A stretch of DNA of 64,000 bases, from positions 2,528,001 through 2,592,000 of the forward strand of contig OZ219747.1 in NCBI GenBank assembly GCA_964291265.2. Direction: 5' to 3'. Positions 58,229 through 64,000 of this stretch are shown in pieces; the stretch's first letter is position 1; each line of letters starts with the position of its first letter. The notes below the pieces were generated by a model. The model was not told where the DNA came from, made no database searches, and saw nothing but the letters and a program-made list of their open reading frames with translations. The translations under genes and the position numbers were made by a program. Source of the DNA: Alphaproteobacteria bacterium (GTDB lineage Bacteria; Pseudomonadota; Alphaproteobacteria; SP197).

Positions 58229-59686
58229 CTAGCTGGCCACTTTTAATCCGCCTTTCCTACCAAGGCGGTACCCGACCCTGAAGACATCCGGGATGTTGAC
58301 ACGGCCGTCGCGCATGCGAAGGAAAATTCCCAAAGATTCAAGGTCCAGACGAACACCCGGGGCCCGTTCACGAATATGTTTAGGCGGTAGTTTCAACGCA
58401 TTCTGTTCCACGTCTTCGGCAAGGTGGTCGAGAACGCGATTGTCGCTCCACCGCGCCTCAATCTCTTCGAATCTGCAAGGCACTGTCAAGCCGACAAGGC
58501 TCTTCAGAACCTCATCCACCCAAGGATAATCTTCTTTGACCTCCGCCACCTGAATCTCAGATGCCACCTGCACCCCGCGCTTAATGCTCTCATAGTGGAG
58601 AGTGTACTTATGCTCCGGATAACGCTCCGCCGTGTCCTCCGCAGCTGTGCGCAGTGCTCGAAGAAATGAACGCGGACTTACCCTTCCTGCAGTATCTCCA
58701 AGATGGCTAGAAATCCAAGTATAGGGAAAACCTCTTCTCCTATTTCGGCCCATGAAAGGACCGGATATGTCATGGAATTTCTCTCTTTGAACGTCGACAT
58801 TCGAAATCAGGCGTCGGGACACTTGGAACAGTTTTTTATCCCCAACGTCGATGGAGCCCAAGTTCCCACATCCGACAAACTTGCGAAACTCCTCTGCGTG
58901 GTTCCCATTGACGAGGCTATGCCAGAAAAGACCATACAGCTCAGAAGTCGGCCAACTCAATTCAACAGAGGAGGAAAGGATCTTTGACGCGTCCGGAAAA
59001 TTGGCGATCTGGGTTTCGTCGACCTGATCGGGTCGCAAGAACATCTTGACACGGAGCCGACGGTAGAATCGCATATCAAGCGCCGTCTGCATCAAACCAC
59101 GAATTAGCCGATACATATCCTCCCAATCGTCCGAGCAGCGGTCCAGGGCATCGAACAGAAACAAAAAATGGGTGTTTTTATCGTTAAATTCGTTATCGCG
59201 TTCAAGGAAGAGGTTTGCAATCTCTTCCGGTTCCTGATCGACATAGTTCAGGCGTGCTTCCCAGGACTCCTGGTCCCGGATTGGGTGGTCGGTGCTAGCG
59301 AGCTGCCAAGCCTGTACCGTACGCCAGATGGTCCTTGGCTCCGCCCTAGCATGCAAGAGCCGCCTGATTACATCCTTGCCCGGATAACCATCCGGTGCTG
59401 GTCTGACACCGAATCCTGTCCGCACCTCGGTATCTTCGCTCAGCATTGATCCACGGCTGGTTTGATAGACAAGATGACGAATTTTCCGTTCCTGAAGTGC
59501 GGTCCACCAGAATGTTTTGCCGGCACCGCGCATACCGGTGACAAGCATGTTGTCCGGGTTCATCGCCTTCACATGAGATGGGGGAAGGTACACATGGGCG
59601 ATGTCGGGGTATTCGGCATGACTTGTCTCTTCCGGCAACTGGGCTAGCGCAGTTCGCGCTCCTTCAACATTGATCAGTCCGCTCAC
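58229..59686 (-). CDS. P-loop NTPase (STAND-like)
   Basis: TGMRGAGKT, FLFDALD, MFLRPD, VSPRSFL, NIPDVFRVG; lower GC than flanks. Confidence 0.8.
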   Translation of the reverse strand: MSGLINVEGARTALAQLPEETSHAEYPDIAHVYLPPSHVKAMNPDNMLVTGMRGAGKTFWWTALQERKIRHLVYQTSRGSMLSEDTEVRTGFGVRPAPDGYPGKDVIRRLLHARAEPRTIWRTVQAWQLASTDHPIRDQESWEARLNYVDQEPEEIANLFLERDNEFNDKNTHFLFLFDALDRCSDDWEDMYRLIRGLMQTALDMRFYRRLRVKMFLRPDQVDETQIANFPDASKILSSSVELSWPTSELYGLFWHSLVNGNHAEEFRKFVGCGNLGSIDVGDKKLFQVSRRLISNVDVQREKFHDISGPFMGRNRRRGFPYTWISSHLGDTAGRVSPRSFLRALRTAAEDTAERYPEHKYTLHYESIKRGVQVASEIQVAEVKEDYPWVDEVLKSLVGLTVPCRFEEIEARWSDNRVLDHLAEDVEQNALKLPPKHIRERAPGVRLDLESLGIFLRMRDGRVNIPDVFRVGYRLGRKGGLKVAS

Positions 59687-60984
59687 ACCTGACTCCCTTC
59701 ACCGCCAGCATTAACACGTTGGTCAAACGACTTCAGGAATCTTCCATACGCAGAGTTAACGGTTTCCTCGTCAAGGTCTTGAAGCAATGAGCCCGCTGCG
59801 AAGCCAAGAGTCCAAGCTATTTCCAAAGGATCGTGGGGCGCGTTTTCTTCGTACAAATCAAACGAAAACTCACTGATTGAGTCGTTTGTTGGATTCACTT
59901 CGTCATAGAGATGGTCCCGAAATAGATCCCATGACCGCGTTCGGAACCCCTCAACATACTCTTCCCTATTGGGTGCAGGTGTCAGTGCTGATACGACCCA
60001 CACTCGCTCCCTGATGCGTTCCGCCAGGTTTCTCTCGCGCCAGTGGCGGAACAAAATCCCATAGTCCGTCCAAGTGCTTTCCGAATCGGTAGCGAATAAC
60101 AACGCTTGCGCTCGCAAGTCGGTAACAGATGCCGCCGCGATGTCGTGCAGGCCATTGCGGCTCTCCAGCAACACCACCGTTGGCTTGAAGACAGTTTCCA
60201 AATTGACCAGGACGCGTTCGAGGCGGTCCGTCCACGGTTCGTGCACCTTGTCCATGTACACACGCCCTAGCTTAGCCAAATACTCCCCAGGATCGTGGCC
60301 GTGCGCGGGCACAACGCGGACATCGCCATCGAAGTTCTGAGCCCAGGACGGAGTAGCAAGCATATCTTCAATTATCCGATTTCCTTGCCCAACAAGATCC
60401 TCGACGAACCAGTCGGTCAAGCCGAACTTCGGCCACCGTTCTTTCTCCAGCATCGCTGAGGAAAGACCGGGTGATTCAAGATCCATGTCAACTGCCAGCA
60501 CTCGTTCCCCCTTGCGTGCAAGGTGCCACGCAAGCACTGCGGCTGTCGTGCTGCGTCCCATACCACCCTTGACGGAATAGAGGGTGACACGTACGGACCC
60601 GGAGTCTTCCGCGGGGTCTCCAACGGTCCACCAGCCACGCCCCGTCACCAGACGGTCGACTAGGAACACGCCCGAACTGATCTCCTGAGCCGTATCGTCT
60701 AGACTCCTCAGCAACGCATCACCGATGAACAGTACGCCCTCTTTCTCAGGGTAGCCACGAACACCTAAAGCCTTGTTTAGAGAGATGGCAAGCCGCTCCA
60801 GCGCGTTACGCACAACCAGATTTTCCTCGAGTGTATCCGATGCCGATATGCGCACCTTACCGAGCAAGTCACGCACCAGATAGAGGTGATCGATCCCGTC
60901 AGGGACGCCCCCCTCTCCCAAATCTGCGATCGCGTTTTTGACGCGGCTCCGCATGTCGTCGAAAGGGATGAAGTCGTCTCTCAC
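59683..60984 (-). CDS. ParA/MinD-like ATPase (KGGxGR variant)
   Basis: YSVKGGMGRST, AVDMDLESPGL, LLESRNG; overlaps the next gene. Confidence 0.85.
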   Translation of the reverse strand: MRDDFIPFDDMRSRVKNAIADLGEGGVPDGIDHLYLVRDLLGKVRISASDTLEENLVVRNALERLAISLNKALGVRGYPEKEGVLFIGDALLRSLDDTAQEISSGVFLVDRLVTGRGWWTVGDPAEDSGSVRVTLYSVKGGMGRSTTAAVLAWHLARKGERVLAVDMDLESPGLSSAMLEKERWPKFGLTDWFVEDLVGQGNRIIEDMLATPSWAQNFDGDVRVVPAHGHDPGEYLAKLGRVYMDKVHEPWTDRLERVLVNLETVFKPTVVLLESRNGLHDIAAASVTDLRAQALLFATDSESTWTDYGILFRHWRERNLAERIRERVWVVSALTPAPNREEYVEGFRTRSWDLFRDHLYDEVNPTNDSISEFSFDLYEENAPHDPLEIAWTLGFAAGSLLQDLDEETVNSAYGRFLKSFDQRVNAGGEGSQV

Positions 60985-61034: not shown

Positions 61035-61387
61035 GTAAGCGTTCGGCCACGCGGTGATTGTTGGTGATATTCACCGGTTGAGGATGCGTTTGGGAGGCGC
61101 ACCACGTGGCGGTTCGCTGTTGGGTCCGAAGACGATGGGTCCGGGTCGGGTTGCTCGTCGTTGGGGTGGCGGCAGGGTGATGAGGCCGTCGCGGTGCATG
61201 GCCAGAAAGGCGACATTCGCCATCATGTTCTTGAGGCCGCCGTCGGGCTTGTATCAGCCGGTCTCGCGGCAGAAGGCGCGGGCGATGGCCGCACGGGTGG
61301 GGTGCTGGGTGGTCAGGGAGCGCAACAGCGCTATCTCGTGCGCGGTGAAGTCACGGCCGTCGTAACGGCACTCGATCACCCCGGTTC
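61035..61387 (-). mobile_element. End of a second copy of the 49263 IS66
   Basis: Near-identical to about 49263-49615, then replaced by another element. Confidence 0.9.
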
Positions 61388-61395
61388 GTAACTAC

Positions 61396-62874
61396 TCACC
61401 CCTTGTTAGGGTCTGGTTGTCCGTAGTGTTGGTTGAGGATGTCTACGGCCTTTCCGTCGAGGGCGATGTGGATGGCGACGTGAGGGTTGTAGCCGAGTGC
61501 GTCCATGGTGGTGAGGTAGCTTGAGCCGCGGCACCATGCTTTGGCGTGGGGCATGGTGCGGAAACATCCGGACACCTTGATCTTGACCTTTGTCATCCTG
61601 ATCTTCTGCTCTCCGGTATTGTTGGTGAAACTGACGTTGGGGTCCTTCATGAAGCGCAGGACGGACTTCTCGTGTTTCACGAGACGTTCATGCAGGTTGT
61701 GCGCGTCGGACTTTGCGATGCGTCCACGTTTTCCTTTCGTCCGTGGCGGGATGTCGGGCAGTTCCTTGGCGCCCTGGGTGAGGATGGTGCGGTAGCGCTT
61801 GCGCACGGCCCGGCGGTCGGCCTCGTTCAAGGTCTTGGATGCGCTCTTGTTGACCCTGCGGGAGACCTCGCGCAGCAGGCTTTTCATCAGTCGCGCCCAG
61901 CGGTAGCCGTTGGACTCGACGACGAAGGTCAGTTCGCGCAGGAGATGGCTGCCGCACAGTTGGTGGCGGCATTGATCGTAGCCCATGTAGGCAGCCCAGC
62001 AGTCGTGGATCAGGACGCCCTTGTAGCGCGGGATGATGCCGATCTCTTCGATCGCCTCCCGGCCGCGCTTGGGGTGCGGGAACTTGCACGTCAGGGTGCC
62101 GTCGGTGACGACATGGAGCCATTGGGTCTTGCCGGCGACCCGGAAGCCGGTCTCGTCGACATGCAGGGCCGGTTGTTGCAGGAGATGGGCCACGGCGGCC
62201 TCCTCCCATGATGCGAGGGCATCGTGAAAGCGCCGGACATAGCCGAGGCAGGTCGCCTCGGAGAGCTTGATGCCGGAGATCGCGTGCACGAGCGAGACGG
62301 CACGACGCAGGGACAGCATCTGGGCGATCAGCAGGTTGATGACGAGGGCCTGGATGCTGACGCCGTACTGCAGGGGGCCCGGCATGTTGTCTGGGAACCG
62401 GCCCTTGGTCCGGGCCCGGCACTTCGGGCATTCCTTGATCTCGGCTTCGACGCGGCGCTCGACGACTTCGAACACGATGTCGTAGAGGACGCGGCACTCC
62501 CGGTCGACGGGGTCGACATCGTGGAGGTCGGCGCCGCAGGCGTCGCAGGCATCGACGACGATCGTCTCCTCGATGGTGGTCGTGCGCAGGTTGTCGCCCG
62601 TCTGCTGGTTCGGTTTCGGGCCCTTGCCGTTGCTCCCGGTGCGCCTCGCGCTCTCGTCCTTGTCAGTCTGCGATGGCGGCAGACCGGAGTTCCGGCTTGT
62701 CTTACGTGTGATCTTCTCCATGAGCACGGTCAGCAACAGCTTTATCAGCATCAGCATGCCGCGGAAGAGCTCCTCGCACTCCTGGCTGACCTTGCCCTGC
62801 TTGCGGAGATCCTGGAACTGCTTCTGGAAGATGTCGGCCTCCTGGCGCACAGACGTGCCGTTCACGCTCGCCAT
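61396..62874 (-). CDS. tnpC: IS66-family transposase
   Basis: KTSRNSGLPPSQ, CDACG, HVDETG, QLCGSHLLREL, TNNTGEQKIR, KVSGCFR. Confidence 0.9.
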   Translation of the reverse strand: MASVNGTSVRQEADIFQKQFQDLRKQGKVSQECEELFRGMLMLIKLLLTVLMEKITRKTSRNSGLPPSQTDKDESARRTGSNGKGPKPNQQTGDNLRTTTIEETIVVDACDACGADLHDVDPVDRECRVLYDIVFEVVERRVEAEIKECPKCRARTKGRFPDNMPGPLQYGVSIQALVINLLIAQMLSLRRAVSLVHAISGIKLSEATCLGYVRRFHDALASWEEAAVAHLLQQPALHVDETGFRVAGKTQWLHVVTDGTLTCKFPHPKRGREAIEEIGIIPRYKGVLIHDCWAAYMGYDQCRHQLCGSHLLRELTFVVESNGYRWARLMKSLLREVSRRVNKSASKTLNEADRRAVRKRYRTILTQGAKELPDIPPRTKGKRGRIAKSDAHNLHERLVKHEKSVLRFMKDPNVSFTNNTGEQKIRMTKVKIKVSGCFRTMPHAKAWCRGSSYLTTMDALGYNPHVAIHIALDGKAVDILNQHYGQPDPNKG

Positions 62875-63493
62875 GACGACGCCTCCACCGCCATGACTGC
62901 CGCCAGCACGGCGAGCCGCTCGCCTTCGGGCATCGTCCGGTAGCGCCGCGCCCAGCTCTCTGCGAGGCGCTTGATGCGCTGGCGGTCGATCGAGTTCCTG
63001 CCCGCACACGTATGCCAGTGCGGTCGGCCCGGTGCGAAGTTGAACCACAGCTTCTCGGTGACAACGCAGGCCTGGTTGTTGACCTGGACCTCGGCCGAGC
63101 GCCAGCCGGCGAGGTGCGTGTCGTAGAGCCGCGAGGGATAGCCGGAGATCATCACCTGGCAGGGCAGCGACGTCAGGATGTCGAGGAGCGCAACATGGTC
63201 ATCGTCCGTGCAGTCGAAGCGGTAGCGGCGCTGCGACCGGCGCGTCGACTGCACGTAAGGCGGGTCGCAGTAGACCAGCTCGCGGCCCTGGAAGGCGAAG
63301 GTCTCGAGAAAACGCAGGGCGCAGCCTTGGTGAAGCTCCACCGGATAGTCACAGCGGAAGGTGTCGATCGCCCGGCGGTTGAGGTCAATGCCGATGCTGC
63401 GCAGCGCCGGTGGCTTGCGCTTCATGATCGCGCCGCCCCCAAGGAACGCCTCGATGTACACGTCATGCGGCGGCATGGCCGCGACGATCGCCT
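62862..63493 (-). pseudogene. Dam-like N6-adenine methyltransferase, 5' end cut by IS110
   Basis: MPPHDVYIEAFLGGG (motif I), YCDPPY (motif IV), MISGY, EKLWFNF; overlaps the transposase start. Confidence 0.88.
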
Positions 63494-63604
63494 TATATGA
63501 CCAGGTTTTGTCCCCGTGATGATGCAATCATCCACAGCGGTTGGCGGCGGGAAAATGTGGACAACCCCGACTGTGGGAGAGGGCCCGGTCTATGGTTGCA
63601 GAGA

Positions 63605-63808
63605 GATTCCGCTCCCCTGCGCGATCAAGCACAGGGGAGCGGGGTGCGGGGATCAAACGATCTCCGCGGAGGTTGGTCGGACCGTTTTCGCCTTGGCCTT
63701 ACGGAGCCGTGTGCCAGCTTGGTCGGCCAACCTCCCTTGGCGTCCCTTGCGTCCTGAATGGATGCCTGGGTTTGAACCGAATCATCATAAGGCGAGGAGC
63801 AAGGGACG
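63605..63808 (+). ncRNA. Predicted IS110 bridge RNA
   Basis: Hairpin 63609-63642, then two stems with internal loops (63668-63735, 63741-63808); loop sequences match the junction. Confidence 0.75.
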
Positions 63809-64000
63809 ATGGGCAAGGTAGTAGCAGGGATTGATGTCAGCAAGGCCAGTCTGGACATCTGTGCGGAGGGCCAGACGCATTGTCTTGCGAACGACGCCAC
63901 GAGCTGGCGGGCGCTGAACACATGGCTTCGCAGCCTCAAGGTGACCCGTGTGGTGATGGAGGCGACAGGTCGCTATCACCGCAAGGTTCACCAGTGTCTT
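63809..64000 (+). CDS. IS110 DEDD recombinase (runs off window)
   Basis: MGKVVAGIDVSKASLD...VVMEATGRYH. Confidence 0.92.
   Translation, partial: MGKVVAGIDVSKASLDICAEGQTHCLANDATSWRALNTWLRSLKVTRVVMEATGRYHRKVHQCL

Follow-up and report, generated by a model that had tools for sequence, protein, structure and literature searches.

The start of a group II intron is the likely cognate target of an IS110-family bridge-RNA element that also interrupts an IS66-borne methylase gene

Introduction

What is the guide RNA of a mobile element aimed at, when that element is found inside a gene carried by another mobile element? The question is raised by an IS110-family element at the end of the window, the 64,000-nucleotide stretch of contig OZ219747.1 that was analysed (G000:C2:2528001-2592000); coordinates above 64000 are window-equivalent, i.e. 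C2 coordinates minus 2,528,000. The initial annotation recognized an IS621-type bridge RNA in the upstream end of this element and proposed that its guide is programmed against the adenine methylase gene of the surrounding IS66-family element. I argue here that this IS621-type element likely has as its cognate target the start of a multicopy group II intron, which its guide matches, and that the copy in the methylase gene is likely a near-cognate insertion. The probability that I assign to this reading is about 85%; the evidence for it consists of genome sequence, the intact copies in G000 numbering four, one of them outside introns.

Results

The element and its IS66 host

The locus comprises the following features:
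61380-61387, plus strand: 8-bp target duplication CCCGGTTC of the IS66 host (partner at 65810-65817)
61388-63491, minus strand: in-window part of the IS66-family host element (PF03050), which as a whole runs from 61388 to 65809
62862-63491, minus strand: 3' part of the interrupted adenine methylase gene (PF02086), with the near-cognate site ATCGC-CT-GGCTC (8/10)
63492-63493, plus strand: left core dinucleotide CT of the IS110 element, with the same junctions in four copies
63494-63808, plus strand: left non-coding end, with the right donor sequence TATATGA at its start and the bridge RNA in its 3' half
63809-64000, plus strand: start of the IS110 recombinase gene (ATG at 63809; 315 aa, continuing to 64756)

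The host displays features of the IS66 family, namely a transposase with a PF03050 match (frame 61396-63048), 15-bp terminal inverted repeats at its ends and the 8-bp duplication. Its methylase gene, which encodes 224 aa when intact, is split at Gln15 by the IS110 element, the 5' part lying at 65460-65502. By eye, the methylase gene of these IS66-family elements (61388-63491 in the window) has a sigma-70-like promoter of its own. A fossil IS110 left end of about 57 bp is present in 13 of the 18 methylase-bearing IS66 copies (65592-65650 and 12 others in G000), while the other five contain other sequence; it begins exactly at a CT core (TTCCGGC-CT), comes in three sequence variants and is likely the remnant of an old insertion that lost the sequence between two GTTGGC words by deletion and was afterwards amplified along with the IS66 host. 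The minus strand at 58229-60984 contains two adjacent long frames (433 and 485 aa); by eye, both have a P-loop-like motif.

The IS110 element itself spans 63492-65459 (1,968 bp). Its left junction, GATCGC-CT-TATATGA with the core at 63492-63493, is where the initial annotation had placed it. The right end reads ATGGATG-CT (65451-65459, with the right CT at 65458-65459); the element thus ends with ACATGGATG-CT, one base away from the GGATGC-CT that had been predicted, the reason being that the left donor guide extends over no more than the first core base, as it does in IS621 according to the accessible part of PMC11208158. Reading beyond the window for the right junction, the check proposed with the annotation, gave CT-GGCTCAG instead of CT-GGCA on the target side, a mismatch that counts against the methylase gene as the programmed target. 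Likewise, the restored codons do not read CQAI: the 16 empty methylase copies in G000 have ATCGC-CT-GGCTC, coding SQAI.

BLAST and tblastn searches detected four copies of the element in G000, identical internally. CT is found at both ends of all four, and the empty methylase and intron sites correspond to the occupied ones minus the element and one core. The recombinase has the domain composition of the IS110 family, a RuvC-like DEDD domain (PF01548) and a Tnp domain with a catalytic serine (PF02371), and its residues D9, E51, D93, D96 and S232 align with D11, E60, D102, D105 and S241 of IS621 (8wt6, E 2e-28), whose catalytic roles are described in the accessible part of PMC11208158. A sigma-70 promoter and terminator scan across the element yielded nothing clearly above chance. 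The element also contains a 96-aa frame without Pfam match (64786-65076; L001:3787-4077), and DNA resembling it (~79%) occurs at more than 40 other places in G000.

Two truncated left ends accompany the intact copies. The one at C2:4177077-4177126 (L005) is identical in sequence, has the same left flank, TTCGATCGC, as the methylase copy, lies outside introns and is cut off by another insertion sequence; the one at C2:4158458-4158673 (L004) is 87% alike and is cut within the target loop. When contigs of four sequencing runs were compared with the element and with the empty intron start described below, neither a circle joint nor an element end at that start was among the matches listed, although contigs cannot show absence.

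The bridge RNA and its four guide segments

The predicted bridge RNA and its parts are as follows:
63646-63808, plus strand: predicted bridge RNA, from fold and alignment (ends approximate)
63646-63667, plus strand: 5' hairpin, from the fold
about 63668-63735, plus strand: target-binding loop, from the fold
63685-63693, plus strand: left target guide TTTTCGCCT, i.e. the variable part TTCGC (63687-63691) plus core
63709-63717, plus strand: right target guide GTGTGCCAG, equal to nt 1-9 of the group II intron
about 63741-63808, plus strand: donor-binding loop, from the fold
63758-63765, plus strand: left donor guide ATGGATGC, equal to the element right end ATGGATG plus the first core base
63782-63791, plus strand: right donor guide TCATCATAAG, in which ATAAG pairs with CTTAT

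The region 63640-63812 is predicted to fold into a 5' hairpin and two large stem-loops that bear the guides, and none of 200 shuffled sequences was as stable (z = -3.92). As in IS621, the element has a long upstream non-coding end that is predicted to hold a two-loop RNA. The motifs on which the initial annotation relied, TCGCCT (63688-63693) and GTGTGCCAG (63709-63717) in loop 1, GGATGCCT (63760-63767) and ATAAG (63787-63791) in loop 2, are all in place, and the assignment of four guide segments to a target and a donor loop proved right. Alignment of 17 related sequences shows a conserved scaffold, with a mean column identity of 82%; the hypervariable columns are those of both target guides. 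Of the 51 predicted pairs, 5 display a change on both sides.

Since the element ends with ACATGGATG-CT, ATGGATGC is the left donor guide, and it includes one core base. Both donor guides match the joined element ends, another trait shared with IS621. Pairing of the right donor guide is predicted to extend over CTTATATGA with one base bulged, and relatives whose end starts with TGTATG have ACAAG or GCAAG in this guide. As for the handshake bases, donor G7 is matched by the C that follows the right target guide, and target C7 by the G that follows the right donor guide; among relatives, L064 and L086 change the donor-loop and target base together, and L075 and L117/L133 misfit. Handshake bases aside, the element is, by every feature that its sequence allows to be tested, a member of the IS621-like IS110 group.

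In the right target guide, the first G is a scaffold base, invariant in all 17 aligned sequences, and the second base is a pyrimidine. Guide-site matches were therefore scored over the 10 variable positions only.

The target guides match the start of a group II intron

The intron copy nearest to the methylase locus is arranged as follows:
66634-66642 and 68609-70518: nearest intron copy, split by element copy B
66641-68608, minus strand: element copy B, 1.2 kb from the methylase copy

Mapping of the other copies, a second check suggested with the annotation, placed three of the four at AGTTCGC-CT-GGCACAC, so that the predicted right flank CT-GGCA, wrong at the methylase locus, occurs exactly at these three sites. 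Their sequence is the reverse complement of a group II intron start. The opposite strand reads GTGTGCC-AG-GCGAAC and continues into an RF02005 match of 170 bits; the intron has a domain I model match, a GUGYG start, an AY end (GAC), a reverse transcriptase/maturase frame (PF00078; PF08388 below cut-off) and precise insertion sites. Its first nucleotide is set at GTGTGCC by 16 empty exon junctions that leave no room to slide, so the right guide corresponds to intron nt 1-9 and the 12-bp core target to nt 3-14.

The guide matches the intron start at 10 of the 10 variable positions and the methylase site at 8, and the match to the intron extends two bases further, to nt 1. Empty sites in G000 number 28 at 10/10, 50 at 9/10 and about 606-607 at 8/10; intron starts account for 27 of the 28 perfect 12-mers and for all 27 exact 14-mers. 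The probability that a random guide would fit the intron perfectly is 2e-4 to 4e-4, and the 16 other guide types known from relatives (see below) score 6-7 of 10 on the intron start. A pattern search of 33 family genomes retrieved the exact right guide from G000 only, plus four one-mismatch matches elsewhere in which the scaffold bases differ. Because the guide matches the intron start, where three of the four copies sit, the methylase-gene copy is likely an off-target insertion. The proposal of an RNA-guided element aimed at another element's cargo thus survives as regards another mobile element, the intron (10/10), and fails as regards the methylase gene (8/10).

The 40 intron 5' regions of G000 comprise 27 intact ones, 3 with the element, 1 with a relic, 8 altered ones and 1 distant paralogue; the relic is that of a variant element at the same intron position, of which 12 bases of the left end persist after the core. 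The intron start is also present unbroken in 3 of the 5 congeners searched. Copy C lies in a short intron variant at a different exon site. Copies B and D are in identical full-length introns, whose hosts, repeated transposase-like genes that are IS66-type by eye, show 37 differences in the 2.8 kb that they share; on the exon side they part after 144 bp, and the exon side of B is identical to that of two empty copies. The simplest reading is that B, C and D are separate insertions, making, with the relic, three to four events at one position. Since the B and D introns are identical, these two could also stem from one insertion, followed by gene conversion or by movement of the interrupted intron.

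Other peculiarities of the intron family were noted. Eight of the 35 uninterrupted copies are altered in nt 3-14 (C2:2242646, 1430313, 1455008, 1456226, 1375045, 1565535; C1:28495, 226547), with four to five distinct small deletions there versus four indels in nt 15-350; recombination scars, escape variants and faulty 5' junctions are all conceivable, and most of the copies are truncated, with an end alignment that is less constrained. G000 also contains about 14 short (~650 nt) intron derivatives without a reading frame (e.g. C2:377420-376772), at an exon site of their own, which apparently moved in trans. The possibility that the guide arose when the intron reverse-spliced into the bridge RNA was considered and rejected, since the sequence shared at the intron start is no longer than the 9-mer, and the bases before the 9-mer (GAGCC) are unlike the usual exon ends (TGCG).

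Guides and sites in related elements

Judged by left-end DNA, 8 of the 22 other genomes from the genus contain close elements, as against none of 10 from elsewhere in the family; such elements also occur in one further alphaproteobacterial assembly, as many decayed copies, and at two close metagenome loci. The metagenome scan gave five loci, with one close locus bearing both junctions, and a plasmid search returned distant recombinases (~47% among the best matches listed). From 63 parsed rows, 39 with both junctions and a readable loop were kept, 17 of them from the single other alphaproteobacterial assembly; duplicates, rows without junctions and unparsed loops were dropped. For the 17 guide types, the match averages 7.5 of 10 positions at their own sites versus 3.5 at the sites of others (0 of 20,000 permutations, with kin that are not independent), and two types are probably undercounted through a one-base register shift. 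Judging from these sequences, the lineage is one that has often been re-aimed, its scaffold being kept while both target guides were rewritten, in step with the sites. As many as 22 of the 36 sites outside G000 match at 8/10 or less, relatives tolerating two to four mismatches, so the methylase site would be an ordinary near-cognate insertion.

The rebuilt empty sites of the relatives were aligned to the G000 intron. G010 (L066) has a different guide, which maps at 10/10 to intron nt 1847, a position that I take to be the foot of domain V, and all seven empty perfect sites in that genome are intron copies. In G004, type a elements lie at intron nt 384 in two of three copies (9/10, with no empty site left) and type b elements at nt 55 in one of five. 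At L111 (G004:C1:1143000-1150500), one intron is interrupted twice, by a type a and a type b IS110 element with different guides. G005 has one copy, located about 230 bp beyond an RF02005 match; its guide fits the site at only 6/10 (9 if G-U pairs are counted) and does so in the opposite relative orientation. None of the 17 scored sites of the other alphaproteobacterial assembly mapped across the intron, in a test that sees only G000-like introns. A reverse nesting is seen at L009:853-1074 and L117:981-1205, where an IS110 recombinase gene has an intron domain I match at or within its 5' part.

Is the whole lineage specialized on introns? Of the nine genus guide types for which there is a complete site, five are represented by a copy inside a group II intron, at positions that differ, though the intron family makes up only about 5% of the repeated DNA of G000; and G004, which has only three RF02005 matches, has two of them interrupted, one twice. 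One could see here a recurrent group II intron parasite, re-aimed several times (at the 5' end, domain I, the region before the reading frame and the foot of domain V), to which introns respond by small deletions in the target window or by carrying the passenger along; I regard this picture as rather doubtful. Somewhat better than even are the odds of an account limited to the lineage-wide pattern, according to which guides drift or arrive by transfer regardless of introns, those that fit any harmless multicopy DNA persist, and there is no intron specialization. Three of the five intron-hitting guide types match at only 9, 9 and 6 of 10, the genomes concerned are kin and repeat-rich, and other guides have settled elsewhere: three of seven complete G009 sites are in an IS5-type transposase gene (one by scanning, two by like flanks), the G015 site is in tnpB, and others are beside DUF772 or Mu-type transposase frames or in host genes (SRAP, MttB). 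For G009 and G004 type b, no empty perfect site was detected in their genomes. This account is compatible with the intron start being the target of the G000 element.

Discussion

By analogy with IS621, the G000 element would form a circle joining its ends as ATGGATG-CT-TATATGA; the donor loop would hold this junction, the target loop would hold TTCGC-CT-GGCAC, and the DEDD/Ser recombinase would insert the circle at CT. In the intron, the core corresponds to nt 8-9, within the predicted basal stem of domain I (nt 6-10), and the insert would lie antisense to the intron. The insert, landing in that stem, likely abolishes or weakens splicing, but since the 5' fragment keeps four of the five basal-stem pairs, splicing may survive. 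The predicted fold of the whole intron is not more stable than those of shuffled sequences (z = -0.6). The cost to the host is likely small, since the introns with copies B and D are themselves located in repeated transposase-like genes. The intron would thus offer a conserved, self-renewing landing site, mostly inside other insertion sequences, on which several guides of an often re-aimed lineage may have settled.

Two other explanations of the G000 sites have to be weighed. All four intact sites share TCGC-CT-GGC and relatives tolerate two to four mismatches, which would be expected if the element read only this relaxed 9-bp consensus, both kinds of site being equally on target and introns being hit because they are many. 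That is improbable, as G000 contains 285 such 9-mers, 27 of which are intact intron starts, and yet three of four copies are in introns. Selection against insertion into host genes would raise the intron share, but three-copy repeats make up 18.4% of the genome and the intron family 0.95%.

The idea of a guide programmed for the IS66-borne methylase gene is hardly credible: an intact copy does lie in that gene, the IS66 element contains a fossil IS110 left end in 13 of 18 copies, and of the two methylase families (17 and 9 copies) the 9-copy paralogues read CQA and pair fully with the variable right guide, but both families match at 8/10 against 10/10 for the intron, their sites are occupied in 1 of 17 and 0 of 9 cases against 3 of 30 for the intron, and the fossil sits at a different site with the left flank TTCCGGC. 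It is true that methylase sites are only 17 of the ~607 at 8/10, so that an insertion there is not the expected one; copy B being only 1.2 kb away, a local hop would be the plain explanation. The intron start as cognate target, with a near-cognate insertion in the methylase gene, accordingly remains the preferred reading.

That IS110 elements target other mobile elements is already known. IS4321 and IS5075 reportedly insert in the inverted repeats of Tn21. These two, like ISKpn4 and ISPst6, which target attC sites (PMC11187229, accessible part), resemble the present element in that they hit another mobile element at a functional end or at a recombination site, but belong to the IS1111 group with a downstream guide RNA, and their sites are DNA sites, not a splice junction. 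ISEc21 and ISMch6, as presented in the accessible part of the same paper, are closer: there too an IS110-group guide picks a conserved stretch of another mobile element, and a close relative is naturally redirected. ISEc21, however, targets codons of the IS3 DDE motif, whereas the G000 element targets ribozyme sequence and its lineage bears 17 guide types on one scaffold.

With IS621, to go by the accessible parts of PMC11208160 and PMC11208158, the element shares an upstream non-coding end with target and donor loops, a CT core, a 9-nt left target guide, an 8-nt left donor guide covering one core base (PMC11208158), a discontinuous right donor pairing and a DEDD plus Ser recombinase of similar size (E 2e-28). 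IS621 targets REP elements, whereas the G000 element targets a group II intron start. Other differences are the right target pairing, 7 bp including the core in the G000 lineage and 9 in the G000 element, as in the longer-RTG orthologues mentioned there, an effective left match of about 5 bp plus core, the length of 1,968 bp and the extra 96-aa frame. IS621 off-targets with one or two mismatches are frequent (PMC11208160, accessible part).

Intron targeting, by contrast, was not found in print. No paper listed by the literature search reports an IS110 guide directed at a group II intron, a case that ISfinder notes, subscription papers or closed supplements may hold: the word intron is absent from the main text of PMC11208160, PMC11187229 and 10.64898/2026.08.14.744561; target motifs in the accessible part of the PMC11208160 supplements were not found as intron targets; and the accessible parts of PMC6053426, PMC3205602, PMC6052338, 10.64898/2026.10.21.760802 and 10.1101/2025.05.14.653916 contain no intron-directed guide. 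Group II introns are therefore likely a so far undescribed natural target of bridge-RNA elements.

Self-splicing introns would thus be a further natural target of RNA-guided recombinases, the right arm of the guide being identical to the intron's first nine bases. The 17 guide types on one scaffold, together with their sites, constitute a natural series that bears on how bridge RNAs are re-aimed and on how many mismatches they tolerate. If the proposed reading is true, a retroelement put out of action at its splice junction by an RNA-guided element would provide a clean and testable case of conflict between mobile elements.
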